In this document: positions 27,143 to 34,988 of the stretch, piece by piece
Position numbering within the stretch: position 1 is the first letter of the stretch
Layout of the letters: each line of letters opens with the position of its first letter
Sequence record: MN508614.1
DNA from: Escherichia phage ES12
Length of the DNA: 64,000 nt
Strand: one strand, 5' to 3'
Notes under the pieces: generated by a model
What the model was told of the DNA's origin: nothing
Seen by the model: only the letters and a program-made list of their open reading frames with translations
Database searches by the model: none
Program-made: the position numbers and the translations under genes

Positions 27143-27195
27143 CCTCATGTTATGTCAGTAAGACTACTATAACACAACACGAGGGACTTGTAAAC
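27143..27195 (-). promoter_or_regulatory. early promoter plus leader module (GTTTAC-N18-TATAGT), copy A, upstream of alt.-3-like gene
   Basis: Minus-strand GTTTACAAGTCCCTCGTGTTGTGTTATAGT followed by leader and RBS; 52-nt match to 43101-43153. Confidence 0.65.
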
Positions 27196-29252
27196 TACAT
27201 CTTGAACTTTTTAGACATTCCGTTGATGTTAACCAAAGAAGCTAAGATTTGAGAAACTTCATTTTCCTCTTCTTTTGATTCTTCTACAAGGAATTGATTA
27301 AATCCAGCCATTGGACGAACTTCACCAGTTTCCATTAGATGGTCTCCATCATATACTGATTCTTCTAATTGTTCAGAAGGAGGAACGATTGTACCTTCGA
27401 TTAGATACTTGTTATAAGCAGTTTCTTTCATAAAGTACGTACTTACTTTATTAATCTTCAGTAAAATTCCACGTGGTAGAATAACTTCAGCTTCTGATGG
27501 AAATCCTGATAAATGACCTGGAACGATAACTTTGATTCGCTCAGCTCCTTTAATTACCATACCCACGCTAGTTTCAGCATCTTCATTAGCATATGTAGAA
27601 TGACTACCCATATGCATCAAATCTTCTGCATCAACGGAACCTTCTCCTTCGCCAGAAAATACTGCGCCAGAATCATCTAGAGCCATATAGTTTTTACCAT
27701 GCTCACCGAAGATATTTGGTTTAAGCGATGTGGATACGAAGTTCTTGAAATAGAACATTTTGTTTTCAATGTTATGACGCAAAGTTTTAAAGGTAACTTC
27801 TTGTCCACGATAAAGCGTAGTTCCTGGAGGAAGAACTGAACCTTTAGCGAATGCAGAATCCAACGTCTCGATGTGCTTAATAGCTCGTTCCATATATTCT
27901 TCACGGGTAGAATCTGGTTTACCCAAAAGGAACGAGTTCATTTCAACATATGAATCTGCACAATAATCTTCAATTACATCAGACTCAGCCTGAGTTAATC
28001 CTTTTGGAGTTACTTCGGTGCTTGCGTATTCATATGCCTGAGCAGCAGATTCATTAATCAATTTATAAATGCCATTCATGACAAATTGAATAATAGCTAC
28101 CTTTTCGTCTGGTGTGGCTTTAGAACCTTTAACCAAATCATTGATAATTTTCTTAATAACATCAAAGCTATTAGAAATATTAATATCAGCGAGATCGCTT
28201 AAAATTTTATCAGTCTTATAATCAAAGAATTCTTTATTCTTTAAATATTCTTGAGAACCTTGATATGTTATATCGCTCTGTAACTTGATAGATGGATCAC
28301 GTAAACGTGCATGGGCTAATGCAATATGATTTCGGAAGCTTTCGAGTTCATAATCACTAGATTTAAAACGAGAAGCGCTTCTCATACCGCCTATAGCTCC
28401 TTTGCTGAAGTTTGAACCAATTTGAATAACGCCAGAGTTCATTGGTCCTTCTGCTTTATACACCGGAACTTTAGATTCAAACTCTTGATATTTCTTAGCA
28501 GCGAAGCTATCACCCTGAAGTGAAGCATCAACAGTAGAATATTGAGCTTGTGCTGCTAATCGACGACTAATTTTAGTTTTCTGAATAACAGCTTGGTCCG
28601 TGCGCTTATCATTTTCTAAAGCAATAGAAGCAGCAACAGCAACAGCTTTAGGAACAGCATTTCCTGTTTTAACGTCTACATAAACATCACCGACCTTTGA
28701 TTCAACTTTTGTGAATAACTCAGTTGAAATAGGAGGTACACCTGTAATGTCTTCTAAATTGGCATTTTTACGGTAAACCATAATATATGCATATTTCTTA
28801 TCATAGTCCCAGATTTCCTTTAAAAGAACATATCGACCTGCTCCTTTAGTACGTACTAAACGGTCAGCAATAACTTGCATTTGACGAGCTGCGCCATTTG
28901 TTTTACTTTTTATTACGCGGAATAGGCATGCGTCGATTTTATACTGTTTCATTGTTTGAAGAGCAGTATCAAAAACGGCATTAATGACACCAATTGGATT
29001 TCCACCCAAGTTTTTAAGCTTAACTAATGATAGTTTCTCATTAACACCTATCATTACGATATGCATCATTTTATCGCCTGGCTTAACGTTTTTATTCGTA
29101 TCACCACCAGAGGTATATGTACAAAATCTAAATCCAGGAAGCACGCTTTCTTCGCCGGCTTGAATAGCAAAAATTTGTGGTATTTTATGCTTAGGATTTA
29201 AGTTAACAACCGGCGCCGAAGCGCCGTCAAATAATTCTGTAATAAGTTCCAT
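27195..29252 (-). CDS. Alt-like ADP-ribosyltransferase paralog (putative second capsid-packaged ART)
   Basis: 685 aa; N-terminal about 230 aa and C-terminal ART domain align with the adjacent Alt (MELITELFD..., TLYRGQ, FVSTSL, EAEVILPRG); central region divergent. Confidence 0.85.
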   Translation of the reverse strand: MELITELFDGASAPVVNLNPKHKIPQIFAIQAGEESVLPGFRFCTYTSGGDTNKNVKPGDKMMHIVMIGVNEKLSLVKLKNLGGNPIGVINAVFDTALQTMKQYKIDACLFRVIKSKTNGAARQMQVIADRLVRTKGAGRYVLLKEIWDYDKKYAYIMVYRKNANLEDITGVPPISTELFTKVESKVGDVYVDVKTGNAVPKAVAVAASIALENDKRTDQAVIQKTKISRRLAAQAQYSTVDASLQGDSFAAKKYQEFESKVPVYKAEGPMNSGVIQIGSNFSKGAIGGMRSASRFKSSDYELESFRNHIALAHARLRDPSIKLQSDITYQGSQEYLKNKEFFDYKTDKILSDLADINISNSFDVIKKIINDLVKGSKATPDEKVAIIQFVMNGIYKLINESAAQAYEYASTEVTPKGLTQAESDVIEDYCADSYVEMNSFLLGKPDSTREEYMERAIKHIETLDSAFAKGSVLPPGTTLYRGQEVTFKTLRHNIENKMFYFKNFVSTSLKPNIFGEHGKNYMALDDSGAVFSGEGEGSVDAEDLMHMGSHSTYANEDAETSVGMVIKGAERIKVIVPGHLSGFPSEAEVILPRGILLKINKVSTYFMKETAYNKYLIEGTIVPPSEQLEESVYDGDHLMETGEVRPMAGFNQFLVEESKEEENEVSQILASLVNINGMSKKFKM

Positions 29253-29255
29253 GAT

Positions 29256-31313
29256 TTATCCTTGAACGAACTTGTAAGGCATGTTTGCAATATCTATACA
29301 AGACGCAATAATTCCAAGAGATGATTCTACTTTCTGTTTAACGTTTGATGAAACAAATGATGCAAAGTCAACTCTGTCTTCTATTTCAATATCACCTGTC
29401 ATTGCAACTACTTCGCCGGTTTCCATTAGACGGTCACCGTCATAAATTACCGATTCGGTGAGTTCTTCTGTGGTCATAACTTCAGCTTGAATAAGCTTGT
29501 TGTTAGTTTTAACTGTTCCATCATTGTAAGATGCATCGGTTATTTTATTAACTTTGACCATTAATCCACGTGGCAAAATGACTTCCATTTCATTTGAAGG
29601 TGCTAAACTTCCACCTGGTAAAACAACATTGACTTTATCAGCCCCAGTAATAACCCATCCAATTCCAACTAAATTATCGCTAGAATTTACTAGTCCTTCA
29701 TCAGTTTTATCAATAGAAACACTTAAACGCTTTTCGTCTGGTAAAACACCCACAGATGAATCAGTCATCCAGGTACCAAAAATGTTTGGATATAATGATG
29801 TTGACACAAAATTTCTAAAATAAAAAACTCGATTTTTTACCAGTGCTTCATATATTGAAGGTAACATTCGTTGTGAACGATACAAAGTAATACCTTTTGG
29901 TAATCGTTCACCATTTTTAAAGGCAGAATCTAAATTATCAATAGCTTTTTCTATATCAGATGCTGTCAAAATACTTGTACGCTCATCTGGATTATATAAT
30001 CCCAAAAGAGCGTTATTTATGTCTACATATCCTGAACTTACGTATTCACGAATTCCACGTTTTTGTGCCGGTGTGTATTTAGATGAATCTTTATTTTCGA
30101 CTATAGGATGTAGTGACCATCCAGCGGTAAGAGCATATCCACGCAATTCTCTTCGAATAATCTTTGTTTTTATTGCATTCCAAGAATTTTGTACTAACTC
30201 ATTCGCAGCATCTTGATTTAAATGCGAATGCTTGTTAATGTTTCTTTCTAACCAAGCACCTTTATATTTTTCTAAAGTATCATCAACTATAGAAGCAATA
30301 GTTTCTAAAGTTTTTATTGAAGTAATAGATTCTTTTCGTAATCTTTCTAAAGCTTTATTTTTTATTTCTGCATTAACATCAGATTCTTTATCTTCAGGAA
30401 TTATAGAAGCTTCTCTGAATGCCATTCCAGCTGTAACACTACTAAGAGCATTCTCTAATGCAAATCCTGAAGTAGAAATAACAGTTAATTCATTAGCGTC
30501 AGAAATTAAAGGAGCGTCAGCAGGTTTATTTAATTCTGCTGCTGAAGCCTCAAATTTTTGAAACATCGGCGTTTCAAATCTAGAAGATTCCAATGATTGA
30601 CTTTGCGCAATTGCTCTACGGGAAATTTTAACTTTAACGATTACAGCTTGGTCAGAACGTTTATCATTTTCTTGCGCAATAGATGCTGCAATTGCCTCAT
30701 TTTTAGTTACTTGAGCTCCAGTATCTTTATTGATATAAACATCACCGACCTTCGATTCAACTTTAGTAAAGAGCTCAGTACTAATTTCCGGAACTCCCGG
30801 AATGTCTTCTAGTGATACATTTTTGCGATGTATAAGAATATATGCATACTTTTTATCGTAATCCCAGAGTTCCTTAAGAAGGACGTATCTGCCACCTGAA
30901 CGACTACGGATAAGTCTATCAGCAATAACTTGAATTTGTCGAGCTTGACCAGCGGTTTTAGACTTAAGAATACGAAGCATACAGGCATCAATTTTATACT
31001 GACGCATTGTTTGCATCGCAACAGTAAAAACTGAATTGATATAATTAATTGGGCTTGGACCAAGACCTTTTAATTTAGCAATTGAACCTTTAGCAGTTAA
31101 TGTAAAAGGAACAATATGCATCATTTTATCGCCCATCTTTAAATCGCGATTAGTATCACCTCCAGATGTATAGGTACATAAACGAAAGCCTGGTTGTTCA
31201 ATTGCATCATCAACATGAACTGAAAAAATTTGCGGTATTTTCTTCTTTGGATTTAAGTTTGTAATCGGAAGAGTAGTATCTTCGTCAAATAATTCTGTAA
31301 TAAGTTCCATCAT
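29256..31313 (-). CDS. alt: Alt ADP-ribosyltransferase (packaged, modifies host RNA polymerase)
   Basis: 685 aa; recognised as T4 Alt (MELITELFDEDTTLPITNL...; LYRSQ / STSL / EMEVILPRG motifs); late promoter TATAAATA upstream; true start may be the second Met (31310). Confidence 0.93.
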   Translation of the reverse strand: MMELITELFDEDTTLPITNLNPKKKIPQIFSVHVDDAIEQPGFRLCTYTSGGDTNRDLKMGDKMMHIVPFTLTAKGSIAKLKGLGPSPINYINSVFTVAMQTMRQYKIDACMLRILKSKTAGQARQIQVIADRLIRSRSGGRYVLLKELWDYDKKYAYILIHRKNVSLEDIPGVPEISTELFTKVESKVGDVYINKDTGAQVTKNEAIAASIAQENDKRSDQAVIVKVKISRRAIAQSQSLESSRFETPMFQKFEASAAELNKPADAPLISDANELTVISTSGFALENALSSVTAGMAFREASIIPEDKESDVNAEIKNKALERLRKESITSIKTLETIASIVDDTLEKYKGAWLERNINKHSHLNQDAANELVQNSWNAIKTKIIRRELRGYALTAGWSLHPIVENKDSSKYTPAQKRGIREYVSSGYVDINNALLGLYNPDERTSILTASDIEKAIDNLDSAFKNGERLPKGITLYRSQRMLPSIYEALVKNRVFYFRNFVSTSLYPNIFGTWMTDSSVGVLPDEKRLSVSIDKTDEGLVNSSDNLVGIGWVITGADKVNVVLPGGSLAPSNEMEVILPRGLMVKVNKITDASYNDGTVKTNNKLIQAEVMTTEELTESVIYDGDRLMETGEVVAMTGDIEIEDRVDFASFVSSNVKQKVESSLGIIASCIDIANMPYKFVQG

Positions 31314-31333: not shown

Positions 31334-31341
31334 TATTTATA
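31334..31341 (-). promoter_or_regulatory. late promoter TATAAATA (alt)
   Basis: Minus-strand TATAAATA between hairpin and alt start; consistent with late expression of a packaged protein. Confidence 0.65.
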
Positions 31342-31346
31342 AAATT

Positions 31347-31364
31347 AAAGGCCCGAAGGCCTTT
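31347..31364 (-). terminator. hairpin between alt.1-like ORF and alt late promoter
   Basis: AAAGGCC-CGAA-GGCCTTT perfect 7-bp stem. Confidence 0.55.
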
Positions 31365-31551
31365 AGTAATCTAGTGGTAAGAGAGTACGATATATTTCAA
31401 ACTTTGGTCCTTTTTCATAGGCATCAAATGTTTCTGTAAATTTATTATAAGCGTATGCATCTACAAATTCGAGAATGACTTGTGATACAGAAGTAGAAAC
31501 ATCTCCACCTTCTTTTTGAGCAATGACAATTGTTTCTAAGTAAGCTTTCAT
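31363..31551 (-). CDS. hypothetical protein (T4 alt.1 position)
   Basis: 62 aa ORF between ligase and alt; synteny only. Confidence 0.5.
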   Translation of the reverse strand: MKAYLETIVIAQKEGGDVSTSVSQVILEFVDAYAYNKFTETFDAYEKGPKFEIYRTLLPLDY

Positions 31552-33011
31552 AAACCAGTTACCTCATGAAAATCACCAAATACATCCTCGAATGTATTAG
31601 CTTTAGTTTTATCTTCACGTAAACGAATCGCAATCGGAAGAAATAATTTAACGTAATCAGTGCGGCCATCAGATTTTAACCAACCGTTGCATTCGCACTC
31701 TAGAATTTTTCCAATATAATAATTTTGGTTTTCCATAATGCGAGTACGGTCAAGTTCATGTGATTTTACGCCGGCTTTGTCTTTTAAGCCTGAACCAGCA
31801 TTTACCTTAATTTTTCCACACTCTGACTCAAGAATAAATCCACCTGCTTTAGTAGGGTCTTTACGGTGAGGATAAATTCCTACAATTTTTAAATCAACAT
31901 CAATTACTTCTTTAAATTTATAGAGATTTTTTGAACGAGCATTTTCCCATAATCCATCGATATTTTTGAGAATAATACCTTCAAGACCTTGGTCAATATA
32001 CTTTTTATAAATTACCTTAGCTTCATCTAGGTTATTTACTACCTGGTTTTCAATTAAAATTACTTTATCATATCCCGATGTCATTTGTTCTAGTTTAGAA
32101 AAACGTACATCATATTTTAAACGAAACGCTGGAAGACCGTATATTTCTACCAACGGGACATAATCCCAGACCTGAAACTTCATACATTGAGCTTCTTTTT
32201 CAGAAATGGTTCCTTTTAAGGATTTATTGGCGATTCCATTAGAAGTAGTACGAGATTCCGCTACTTCGGCGAATTCTTTGGCTTTACTAATTTCAGGATA
32301 AGCATCAAAAAGAAAATCTAGGCCTTCTGGTTCCTTTTTAACTTGCTCATGGTATACCAATTCGCCATCAATTAACACACCTTCTGGATGAATCTGGCGG
32401 GCTTCAGCAGTCATTTTGATTAACTCTTCCTTAAGAAGATCTAATCCTAGATATTCATTACCAGCTCGTGATAAAAGACGAACATCATCTAATTCATCGC
32501 CTCGGACTTCAGCAAAACACCGAGCTCCATCTGCTTTTAACTGCGCAAAGGCTGGAAACTTGATATTCTTATTAATGCCTTTTTCATCATAAGAACTTGC
32601 AAGCATTTGAGGTTGTTCAGGAATTAAACCTGGCCAAACTTTATTTGCAATAGATACTGAAGCACCGCATTCAAGGTCTCGCATCATAACTCGACGCAAA
32701 ACTTCAACATCATCCTTTTTACCATCAGTGATATATCCAGTTAATTCCTCAATTGCAGCATTTCCAGTCAATTTCCGAGTAGCTAACGTGAATTCAATGA
32801 AGTCAAGCATATCGGTAATAGTCAGCATTCCAAAACTCTGGGTAGCAATACCCGGTTTAGGCCATTTCTTGATATAATACTGTAACCCACGAGAATAAGT
32901 CAGACGATATACTCGTTTAAGCAATTCATTATCTTTATTCTTTTCAAGAATTGCTTGCTTCTGCTTAGTTGAACCAATAGATGCTATTTCGTTCAGAATT
33001 TTAAGAATCAT
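31548..33011 (-). CDS. 30: ATP-dependent DNA ligase (gp30)
   Basis: 487 aa; adenylation motif KADGAR; recognised as T4 DNA ligase. Confidence 0.95.
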   Translation of the reverse strand: MILKILNEIASIGSTKQKQAILEKNKDNELLKRVYRLTYSRGLQYYIKKWPKPGIATQSFGMLTITDMLDFIEFTLATRKLTGNAAIEELTGYITDGKKDDVEVLRRVMMRDLECGASVSIANKVWPGLIPEQPQMLASSYDEKGINKNIKFPAFAQLKADGARCFAEVRGDELDDVRLLSRAGNEYLGLDLLKEELIKMTAEARQIHPEGVLIDGELVYHEQVKKEPEGLDFLFDAYPEISKAKEFAEVAESRTTSNGIANKSLKGTISEKEAQCMKFQVWDYVPLVEIYGLPAFRLKYDVRFSKLEQMTSGYDKVILIENQVVNNLDEAKVIYKKYIDQGLEGIILKNIDGLWENARSKNLYKFKEVIDVDLKIVGIYPHRKDPTKAGGFILESECGKIKVNAGSGLKDKAGVKSHELDRTRIMENQNYYIGKILECECNGWLKSDGRTDYVKLFLPIAIRLREDKTKANTFEDVFGDFHEVTGL

Positions 33012-33277
33012 TGTTCATCCTTTAGAGTTTGGTTTACAGCTCTATTATAAATCAATTCATCATTAAGCTCAGTCAAAGACCTGTGGTACGTGGTTCTAAC
33101 TTTATTTCCTTGCATCCAGTGCTTGACGTAAATGAAACCTTGCTCTACACATTTTTTAAAAATTCGTTCGTCTTTTTGAGCTCGGAATTCTGGATTGCAT
33201 CTAAAAAATTGATTTACGTGACCGTAATCACGTGTAGTATTACCTTCATTTTCATAAATAGTGTGAACAACAAACAT
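33008..33277 (-). CDS. hypothetical protein (30.1 position)
   Basis: 89 aa ORF, translationally coupled to ligase. Confidence 0.55.
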   Translation of the reverse strand: MFVVHTIYENEGNTTRDYGHVNQFFRCNPEFRAQKDERIFKKCVEQGFIYVKHWMQGNKVRTTYHRSLTELNDELIYNRAVNQTLKDEQ

Positions 33278-34140
33278 TAGAATGCTCCTTGGAAAATATT
33301 ATCACCACTAGTAAATCTATTAAAATATCCTGCATCACCAGGCTTAGTATAACTCCACGTATGGAATGGATTCATATGATACGGGTGTGTATAATATGGA
33401 TTATATGGATGTGTATAATATGGATTATACGGATTAAATCCAGGAGTTCTCCAGGTAGTGTTCCAACGAAAAGAATCGTTTTTAACCATCTTCTCAATTA
33501 CATCTTTTATAGCTTTTTCACTATCAAAACTTTCTTTATTTTCCTTCGGTGAAAAAAGCTTATTTTCTACATCATTCCATGTATAAACTCGCTGCGCAGT
33601 TTTTGGAATATTGTCACGCTCTCCTCGAGCCATCCAATAAACAGGAACATTTAATATTTCACTCGCATGATCGCAGTGGTGGGCGAGATCGTCAATATAA
33701 CAAATTACATTATATTTCTCTTTTGCCTTTTTGAATAACTCTTCTTTTGAAGAATCATGACCACACATCATTACTTCTGAGAAGGCACCAGGAAAAAGAG
33801 CATTCAAATTAAATTGACGATTCAGCAGAGCGTCAATAGAATCACCCAATGCTGTAACAGCTACAAAATTATAATCTTCTTTTAGTTTGTTAATTACGCA
33901 CAGGGCATCTTTATATGGAGACAGGTAACGAATAAAATCTGATCGATTGTATTTTTCAATTAGCTTGACACCAAGTTCTTCATCACAATTAAAGAGTTTA
34001 CCCGGAGAAATAAATTTCTCATCTTGGATCATTTTTAAAATATGTTCTAACGGAAGATTATATTTCTGAGCAAAATAAGGAAGACCTGATTGCCAGCTTA
34101 AACATACTCCATCAATATCAGTTAAAATAGTAGGCTTCAT
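33277..34140 (-). CDS. HAD-superfamily hydrolase-like protein with Pro/Tyr-rich C-terminal repeat (30.2 position)
   Basis: 287 aa; N-terminal DIDGV motif typical of HAD phosphatases/nucleotidases; C-terminal NPYNPYYTHPYNPYYTHPY repeat. Confidence 0.7.
   Translation of the reverse strand: MKPTILTDIDGVCLSWQSGLPYFAQKYNLPLEHILKMIQDEKFISPGKLFNCDEELGVKLIEKYNRSDFIRYLSPYKDALCVINKLKEDYNFVAVTALGDSIDALLNRQFNLNALFPGAFSEVMMCGHDSSKEELFKKAKEKYNVICYIDDLAHHCDHASEILNVPVYWMARGERDNIPKTAQRVYTWNDVENKLFSPKENKESFDSEKAIKDVIEKMVKNDSFRWNTTWRTPGFNPYNPYYTHPYNPYYTHPYHMNPFHTWSYTKPGDAGYFNRFTSGDNIFQGAF
33383..33430. repeat. 24-bp direct tandem repeat (2 copies), coding
   Basis: GTGTGTATAATATGGATTATA duplicated; encodes YNPYYTHP-YNPYYTHP in the C-terminus of the HAD-like protein. 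Confidence 0.7.
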
Positions 34141-34601
34141 AGAGAGTCTCTTAATAGGTTTAACACATCAATAAATTCAGCTTCGGTTAGTATTGTATCA
34201 TCTTTTGTTAGACCACTAGCCATGCTGTGCTTCAAAACTTTTCCTTTCGAGGCTTGTAATGCATCGCGAAAGCCCCTGTTTTGGAACGCTGCTTCAAAAT
34301 ATGCATTTGTGTATAATTCTTTCCACGCTGGAGAGTATCTTGAAAACGGAACTCCAAGCCAGAAGAGGGTCCCACGGTCCTGAGCTCTAGCATAAGACCT
34401 TCCAGCTTGTTGGGCGGCAAGCCCGGATAACCCAAATATACGACGTTGCTGTTCAATATTTTTCACCTTACACCCTTGGAGGAATCCTTCGAGACCTCCA
34501 AATTGGATACCATCCATAACAAAAGGCCATTGGGCGAAATTACTTAATGCGCATGATGGCCATCTAAAATTGCTTCTAATCTCTAACTCAGACATTTTCA
34601 A
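34137..34601 (-). CDS. NADAR / YbiA-like domain protein (30.3 position)
   Basis: 154 aa; LSNFAQWPFVMDGIQFGGLEGFLQGCK matches the NADAR (DUF1768) signature SNFa.WP...DG..F...E..fQ..K. Confidence 0.7.
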   Translation of the reverse strand: MKMSELEIRSNFRWPSCALSNFAQWPFVMDGIQFGGLEGFLQGCKVKNIEQQRRIFGLSGLAAQQAGRSYARAQDRGTLFWLGVPFSRYSPAWKELYTNAYFEAAFQNRGFRDALQASKGKVLKHSMASGLTKDDTILTEAEFIDVLNLLRDSL

Positions 34602-34794
34602 TACTTATAATTTCAACATCAGCCCAATGACCATAGCAAGGAAGACGAAATTCAACTGGCCAGTTAGGGTCCTTTTCTAATATAATAGACTTAACTTGTG
34701 GTTCTTCGTGTTCATCAGTATATGGATTTTTATCTGTTACTTTATATGTGACCTTAATGTACTGAATTCCAAAAATCTTATTAATTATATTCAT
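34588..34794 (-). CDS. hypothetical protein
   Basis: 68 aa ORF in tightly packed operon. Confidence 0.5.
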   Translation of the reverse strand: MNIINKIFGIQYIKVTYKVTDKNPYTDEHEEPQVKSIILEKDPNWPVEFRLPCYGHWADVEIISIENV

Positions 34795-34988
34795 ACTAAT
34801 TCCTTTAATCCGTAGATAGGAGATAATTCATCACCCATACGAAGGTCTTCATTTCCATCTACCCAGGAAACAATATAAGCCTCTTTTATTTGAATACCAC
34901 TCCATTTAAATGGAGGTAGAACCTTAGAAATTAATCCAGGTATACCAACTCCCTTTAATTCAACAGTTTGACCTAAAAAGAATTTCAT
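34791..34988 (-). CDS. hypothetical protein
   Basis: 65 aa ORF, start overlaps previous stop. Confidence 0.5.
   Translation of the reverse strand: MKFFLGQTVELKGVGIPGLISKVLPPFKWSGIQIKEAYIVSWVDGNEDLRMGDELSPIYGLKELV

Follow-up and report, generated by a model that had tools for sequence, protein, structure and literature searches.

Does Escherichia phage ES12 carry a gene that protects it against DarT-type toxins, and does the phosphatase-like gene next to it take part? We addressed these questions in a 64,000-nucleotide (nt) stretch of its genome (record MN508614.1), referred to here as the window, in which an original prediction made from the sequence alone had placed a NADAR-domain protein next to a HAD-like hydrolase and had proposed an ADP-ribosylation control or anti-defence module. 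We conclude, with a probability of about 0.9, that the NADAR gene is gene 30.3 of the T4-like phages, now called adfN, whose product removes ADP-ribose and so counters DarTG1, and that its neighbour, gene 30.2, encodes a capped HAD phosphohydrolase that may act with AdfN, with DNA ligase or in nucleotide-pool metabolism. We place the window in a Tequatrovirus (T4-like) genome, because its DNA is identical or similar to that of T4-like records and its genes follow those of T4 one by one from alt to cd. Over positions 33000-34800, identity to Escherichia phages ES26 and 132 is 100%, and matches were obtained in 693 phage records, nearly all of them from T4-like phages of enterobacteria.

Gene 30.3 encodes the phage NADAR enzyme AdfN

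The product of gene 30.3 (gp30.3) matched the Pfam family PF08010 (Phage_30_3) over profile positions 1-138 of 138 with a score of 231 bits (cut-off 36; E 4.8e-69). It has the same length as T4 gp30.3 and is identical to it at 148 of 152 residues (97%); the four differences (I47V, F104I, R107K and M125I) all fall outside the invariant positions of the family. Across 153 distinct family domains, E36, Q40, R86, H123, T134 and E140 are invariant, and the ES12 protein has all six, while position 43 is K in 146 domains and R in 7, and K in ES12. The C-terminus (...EAEFIDVLNLLRDSL) is full length and identical to that of T4, and residues 138-151 form a helix in the structural model.

An AlphaFold (AF2) model of gp30.3 (predicted local distance difference test score 82.8, predicted template-modelling score 0.81) was compared with the PDB by Foldseek. 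The three solved NADAR structures were retrieved, namely E. coli YbiA (2b3w, probability 1.00), the Geobacter lovleyi NADAR (8bat, 0.99) and the Phytophthora nicotianae NADAR (8bau, 0.97), and the next PDB match had a probability of 0.02. YbiA was the best structural match (E 6.7e-5), and the template-modelling scores to the NADAR structures were moderate (0.54-0.58). A profile of the gp30.3 family also found YbiA as its best PDB sequence match, over the LSNF...E..Q..K motif, with a marginal E of 0.058. Single-sequence searches of gp30.3 and gp30.2 against PDB sequences returned noise only, and neither protein was matched by NCBIfam or PADLOC. The PF08010 match and the NADAR structures returned by Foldseek confirm that the protein is a NADAR-fold enzyme, as had been predicted. 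The predicted NADAR signature is also there, but it reads LSNFAQWPFVMDGIQFGGLEGFLQGCK, that is, E..LQ..K, and not the canonical YbiA form E..FQ..K that had been quoted.

We found that the catalytic E36 and the phosphate-binding K43 are intact, but His123 takes the place of the third catalytic acid, a Glu in YbiA and an Asp in DarG1. His123 belongs to an LKHS motif on the last strand and is His in all 153 family domains, and a His at this position is what defines the phage NADAR family (PMC11125620, PMC11543638). His123 is a hallmark of the active phage family and not a sign of decay, so the original prediction, which would have counted loss of the conserved Glu/Asp residues as refutation, offered a test that would have misled.

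The NADAR and HAD reading frames both lie on the minus strand where they had been placed. The listed NADAR open reading frame (ORF; 154 amino acids (aa), to 34601) opens at TTG, and an ATG two codons later, at 34595, gives 152 aa. This ATG is almost certainly the true start of gene 30.3, because it is the start annotated in T4 and because the catalytic residues then carry the published numbers E36 and K43. An out-of-frame ORF inside the gene, corresponding to T4 30.3', is open in ES12 too (34232-34456, minus strand, 74 aa, TTG start). Elsewhere in the family, many representatives (P0243, P0245, P0246, P0257 and others) are 250-560 aa long and carry N- or C-terminal extensions without a Pfam match; ASCH domains were seen in three representatives and BspA-type leucine-rich-repeat domains in three.

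AdfN as an eraser of DarT1 marks

T4 gene 30.3 was renamed adfN by Johannesman et al. (Nat Commun 2025; PMC11825919), and its product is reported to be necessary and sufficient against DarTG1 and to be a guanine-ADP-ribose DNA glycohydrolase (PMC11825919, PMC11125620). After deletion of adfN, T4 and T2 no longer formed plaques on DarTG1 hosts, while RB69, whose own allele is 15 residues short and defective, was fully rescued by ectopic adfN (PMC11825919). Variants at E36 and K43 were built to probe the need for catalysis, and ADP-ribose was stripped from DarT1-modified DNA by purified wild-type AdfN but not by E36A; the thymidine-specific DarTG2 was not countered by adfN (PMC11825919). Hydrolysis of guanosine-ADP-ribose by T4 gp30.3 in vitro was shown independently (Toxins 2024; PMC11125620). 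The anti-DarT role that had been proposed for the ES12 protein is therefore experimentally shown for its 97%-identical T4 orthologue (PMC11825919, PMC11125620): the proposal is correct but already published.

We infer the same activity for the ES12 protein, because it is 97% identical to T4 gp30.3 and keeps every key residue. As a stand-alone NADAR-fold enzyme produced early in infection, AdfN would release ADP-ribose from guanine in DNA by hydrolysing the N-glycosidic bond that joins them. The marks that host DarT1, the toxin of DarTG1, puts on phage DNA would thereby be erased and replication could proceed, so that the phage would in effect carry an orphan antitoxin. An intact anti-DarTG1 counter-defence gene in a phage is useful for host-range prediction, for example in phage therapy against E. 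coli carrying DarTG1.

Gene 30.2 encodes a capped HAD protein

The N-terminus of gp30.2, MKPTILTDIDGVC, contains the DxDGV motif from which a HAD-type protein had been predicted, and a fold search bore this out by identifying the neighbour of the NADAR protein as a HAD-fold protein. gp30.2 is 90% identical to T4 gp30.2, and the differences are mostly in the C-terminal tail. Residues 1 to about 200 form a Rossmannoid HAD core with a helical C1 cap, which in the model is the insert between motif I and strand 2, and a disordered tail rich in Tyr, Pro and Asn follows. HAD motifs I-IV were located at D8-I-D10-G-V12, T96, K132 and D150-D151. Among 41 relatives, D8, D10 and K132 never vary and T96, D150 and D151 hardly do, and sub-threshold Pfam matches of these relatives were to PF00702 in 10, NT5C in 6 and HAD_2 in 3. 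The top PDB match of the gp30.2 profile was 2jao, at a marginal E of 0.041, with which it shares DGVL..(W/F).SGL. NT5C structures ranked among the best Foldseek matches of gp30.2, at E about 1e-8 and with root-mean-square deviations among the lowest listed.

In the HAD superfamily, a cap domain goes with small-molecule substrates. Because gp30.2 has a cap in the model, its substrate is most likely a small molecule, either a nucleotide or a sugar-phosphate, and not the end of a polymer.

Residues ~200-287 vary in length and sequence among the relatives, and disorder is predicted from about residue 228. The tail is 10 aa longer than that of T4, as seen from the alignment gap, and contains a duplicated NPYYTHPY encoded by a 24-nt tandem repeat. 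A GIEYL..(R/Q)PT motif is common to several of the related tails, including that of T4, and has diverged in ES12. We found no paper on gp30.2 in the literature.

Gene order and transcription of the region

On the minus strand, from 38683 to 27195, the genes stand in the same order as in T4: cd, 31.2, 31.1, 31, rIII, 30.9-30.4, 30.3, 30.2, 30.1, 30, alt.1 and alt (Table 1). The stop codon of 30.4 overlaps the start of 30.3, and 30.1 overlaps or abuts 30.2 on one side and the ligase gene on the other, so genes 30.4 to 30 make up a single, tightly packed contiguous block. The stop of 30.3 and the start of 30.2 share an ATGA, an arrangement typical of translational coupling. The ligase gene and, in tandem, two full-length Alt-type ADP-ribosyltransferase (ART) genes lie downstream, as had been noted. 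At the position of the second Alt gene, the T4 annotation shows only the remnants alt.-1 and alt.-2.

Table 1. Features of the 30.4-alt region in the window, in order of transcription
Feature	Position	Strand	Evidence
Gene 30.4, 68 aa, function unknown	34588..34794	-	phrog_2042, E 2.2e-35; T4 annotation; sequence
Gene 30.3 (adfN), 152-aa phage-type NADAR, predicted DNA guanine-ADP-ribose glycohydrolase	34137..34595	-	PF08010; T4 orthologue
ATGA overlap of 30.3 stop and 30.2 start	34137..34140	-	Direct sequence reading: ...GACTCTCTATGAAGCCT...
Gene 30.2, 287-aa HAD-superfamily protein	33277..34140	-	Fold, motifs
24-nt tandem repeat, 2.3 copies, in the 30.2 tail	33379..33434		Tandem Repeats Finder score 98, 90% matches
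Gene 30.1 (DUF3045)	33008..33277	-	Pfam PF11243, E 2.9e-64; ORF coordinates
Gene 30, ATP-dependent DNA ligase	31548..33011	-	ORF and T4 synteny
Terminator-like hairpin (31365-31346), then late-promoter consensus TATAAATA (31341-31334)	31334..31365	-	Consensus scans, direct reading
alt, ADP-ribosyltransferase, T4 Alt orthologue	29256..31313	-	98% identical to T4 Alt
Second full-length Alt paralogue	27195..29252	-	41-42% identical to Alt over full length

The original prediction had put the NADAR gene, the ligase gene and both Alt genes into the same early transcription unit. This holds for the ligase gene, as 30.4 to 30 are contiguous, but it is doubtful for the Alt genes, because a GC-rich hairpin with a T-run behind it stands between alt.1 and alt, because a match to the T4 late-promoter consensus TATAAATA follows about 20 nt ahead of the alt ATG, and because Alt is a virion protein packaged in the capsid (T4 annotation). 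This arrangement suggests that alt is transcribed separately from the genes of the 30 region, and late.

Neighbours of gene 30.2 in other phages

We counted neighbouring genes in 80 IMG/VR loci around gp30.2 homologues (L033-L112). The most conserved neighbour was DNA ligase, present in 75 of the 80 loci, usually fewer than 500 bases downstream of the gp30.2 homologue and often overlapping or abutting it. It was followed by Alt, found in 56 loci within about 2-3 kb on the downstream side of the HAD gene, and then by a gp30.3-type NADAR, which in 37-38 loci stood on the same strand no more than 1.5 kb upstream. The NADAR-HAD adjacency extends to distant members of the Straboviridae, among them Acinetobacter phage KARL-1 and Klebsiella phage RCIP0002. 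In a phage database, the two families were close in size (1510 and 1439 records) and in their distribution over host genera, which favours a link between them. In phiR1-RT, the 30.3- and 30.2-type genes are about 55 kb apart, and at 8 of 10 distant NADAR loci from outside the T4 phages (L022-L031) no gp30.2 homologue was found within 5 kb.

Genes for phosphatases of the DSP-PTPase type, a second phosphatase fold beside the NADAR family, adjoin gp30.3-type NADARs at L002:615-1235, where the match is sub-threshold, and at L029:1533-2903, where it is above threshold. The protein adjoining the NADAR in L002 was ruled out as a gp30.2 homologue (hhalign probability 0.2%). In unrelated genomes, too, gp30.3-type NADARs recur beside nucleic-acid ligases (L023:4908-6756, L025:1426-5453, L116, L119 and L113-L115). 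In one case an ATP-dependent DNA ligase gene overlaps the stop of the NADAR gene, in another an NAD-dependent ligase lies at a distance of 1.6 kb, and the ligases of CcrColossus (L116), phiR1-RT (L119) and the Bacteroidales islands (L113-L115) are RNA ligases.

NADAR-NT5C fusions in Bacteroidales

In two IMG/VR contigs (L028 and L029), a single protein was found to join a gp30.3-type NADAR (His variant) to an NT5C-type HAD domain behind it, with PF06941 scores of 55.7 and 39.5 bits (cut-off 24.8). A search with the L029 fusion returned 1831 relatives. The best 120 clusters all combined PF08010 with PF06941; their contigs, up to 495 kb long, belong to Bacteroidaceae and Prevotellaceae. In 16 of these 120 (among P0176-P0231), an N-terminal KptA/Tpt1 domain (PF01885) was present as well. 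The KptA-NADAR-NT5C triple fusions are 503-508 aa long (L114/L115:7001-8512); an ADP-ribosylglycohydrolase gene follows them, and genes for an RNA ligase, an HD/AAA_33 kinase and a methyltransferase precede them. Neighbours of the fusions were RNA ligase, HD/AAA_33 kinase, methyltransferase, ARH and PARG-like genes. The E, K and H of the NADAR domain are retained in the fusions, as are the DMD, ST, K and DD of the HAD domain.

The fused HAD domain aligned with the gp30.2 profile from motif I to strand 2 (68 columns) with an hhalign probability of 92% and E 6.8e-7. We did not call the fused domains orthologues of gp30.2, as their matches to the gp30.2 hidden Markov model were weak (E 5.6e-4 at best, within a small set). 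Fusion to a HAD domain is, moreover, not general across the family but phylogenetically narrow, with NT5C in 2 of 56 long family representatives (50% clustering). We found no description in the literature of a pairing of NADAR with a nucleotidase, HAD or KptA, although an earlier mention of the fusion in the founding NADAR paper (de Souza and Aravind 2012) or in a 2015 review is possible. What is new here is the family of NADAR-NT5C fusions, some with KptA, together with the neighbourhood statistics, and through them gp30.2 becomes a testable candidate partner of AdfN.

Does gp30.2 act with AdfN?

Several points weigh against the identification of 30.3 as an anti-DarTG1 gene and of 30.2 as a HAD phosphohydrolase. 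gp30.3 gave no match to the Pfam NADAR family PF08719 at E<=1, and among its relatives 10 of 56 long representatives matched that family, all below threshold and with E 1.2e-6 at best. The link to the NADAR superfamily rests on fold, profile, motif and literature. The removal of ADP-ribose by gp30.3 of ES12 is transferred from T4 and is to that extent putative. Moreover, AdfN-T4 was reported not to neutralise DarT1 in uninfected E. coli and to rescue non-T-even phages weakly; given this shortfall outside T-even infection, the picture in which the enzyme alone is enough is incomplete. As to gp30.2, no match to Pfam or NCBIfam was found, and no HAD family at its curated threshold. It appears nearest to the 5'(3')-deoxyribonucleotidases, an assignment to subfamily that is weak (E about 0.04).

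According to Johannesman et al., AdfN-T4 probably needs an additional T-even protein (PMC11825919), and gp30.2 could be that missing factor. The two would then form a two-enzyme module, in which gp30.2 processes ADP-ribose products that are released or left unhandled by AdfN, or stabilises or localises AdfN; its substrates could be breakdown products of ADP-ribose or ADP-ribosylated dGMP in the nucleotide pool, and guanine-specific ADP-ribosyltransferases are known to modify G mononucleotides as well (PMC12945103). gp30.2 is a candidate for this role because NADAR-HAD fusions exist and because the 30.3 and 30.2 frames overlap. The fusions follow the gene order 30.3 then 30.2, their HAD domain aligns with gp30.2, NADAR lies upstream of the HAD gene in 37-38 of the 80 loci across several Straboviridae lineages, and DSP-PTPase-like phosphatases sit beside NADARs too (L002, L029). 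However, the ligase, and not the NADAR, is the closest-kept neighbour of gp30.2, the two genes are widely separated in some Straboviridae such as phiR1-RT, and most of the distant NADARs from outside the T4 phages stand without a gp30.2 homologue nearby. The fusion is narrow and its HAD domain a distant relative of gp30.2, AdfN de-ADP-ribosylates DNA alone in vitro, and the adjacency in T4-like phages may be inherited synteny. We therefore regard a partnership of gp30.2 with AdfN as doubtful, and the joining of the HAD and NADAR genes into one module is something we infer. It is somewhat more likely that gp30.2 is independent of AdfN and serves DNA or nucleotide metabolism together with the ligase, a plausible reading that stays just short of probable. 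It could be a 5'(3')-nucleotidase that adjusts the deoxynucleoside monophosphate pool or removes AMP, or possibly a 3'-phosphatase that readies nicks for ligation. The near-constant ligase downstream of the HAD gene, the many T4-like phages that have 30.2 by the ligase and no NADAR nearby, the NT5C-like features of gp30.2 and a region rich in nucleotide-metabolism genes such as cd (dCMP deaminase) all fit such a role. A function on DNA ends sits poorly with the C1 cap, which usually goes with small substrates, and T4 already has a 3'-phosphatase, PseT; an independent role also leaves the NADAR-NT5C fusions unexplained.

A further reading, which we consider very improbable, is that the NADAR protein reverses or limits the ADP-ribosylation carried out by the phage's own Alt, ModA or ModB instead of countering a host toxin. 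Alt genes do accompany the HAD gene in 56 of the 80 loci, and Iyer et al. 2022 (PMC9503650) noted that T4-like phages encode NADARs as early genes together with ARTs. However, NADARs are reported to act on ADP-ribose linked to guanine or cytidine in DNA and RNA (PMC11125620, PMC11543638, PMC12945103), the phenotype reported for deletion of T4 adfN is the loss of plating on DarTG1 hosts (PMC11825919), and alt stands behind the terminator-like hairpin with a late-promoter consensus of its own. The assignment of AdfN to the defence against DarTG1 thus remains our preferred reading. As to its neighbour, there is a minor chance that a NADAR and an NT5C-like HAD protein form a conserved unit that clears nucleic acids or nucleotides of ADP-ribose in two steps, with gp30.2 as the partner of AdfN. 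Such a unit would be split into two coupled genes in T4-like phages and fused, sometimes together with KptA/Tpt1, in repair islands of gut Bacteroidales. If true, this would account for the failure of AdfN on its own in uninfected E. coli and in infections by T5 or Bas25, it would add a second enzymatic step to DNA de-ADP-ribosylation, and it would link phage counter-defence to a widespread, unstudied KptA-NADAR-phosphatase system of Bacteroidales.

Comparison with known systems

The Bacteroidales fusions resemble the 30.3/30.2 pair in having a His-variant, gp30.3-type NADAR followed by a HAD phosphatase, in the order of the genes. In contrast to the pair, they are one polypeptide, their HAD domain is a canonical NT5C domain distantly related to gp30.2, and they are not found in a phage early region. 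The NT5C family itself (PF06941), which includes mouse and human cdN/mdN (2jao, 2i7d, 1q92) and a Staphylococcus epidermidis protein (3bwv), shares with gp30.2 the capped HAD core, the motif I context DxDGVL..(W/F).SGL and a DD motif IV, whereas gp30.2 is longer at its C-terminus by about 90 residues, many of them disordered.

On the NADAR side, YbiA (2b3w) has the LSNF...DG...E..Q..K motif in common with gp30.3 at about 20% identity, and has Glu at the position of His123; YbiA is a housekeeping enzyme tied to riboflavin intermediates and swarming (PMC11125620). T4 AdfN is the orthologue, with the position between 30.4 and 30.2-30.1-30, the residues E36, K43 and H123 and the intact C-terminal helix in common; the four substitutions that separate the two proteins are conservative and give no hint of a different function. 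The NADAR antitoxins associated with DarT1, that is, DarG1 (BC4488 family; 8bat), have the same fold and according to the literature hydrolyse guanine-ADP-ribose, whereas gp30.3 has no N-terminal extension, carries His in place of Asp as its third catalytic residue, and is an orphan that has no cognate DarT gene beside it. No DarT was found next to 30.3: the adjoining genes are 30.4 and 30.2, and the ARTs nearby are the Alt orthologue and its paralogue. In uninfected cells, DarG1 could not be replaced by T4 gp30.3, as published. Judged by its sequence, gp30.3 of ES12 is an enzyme that works like a DarG1 antitoxin, but outside any DarTG system.

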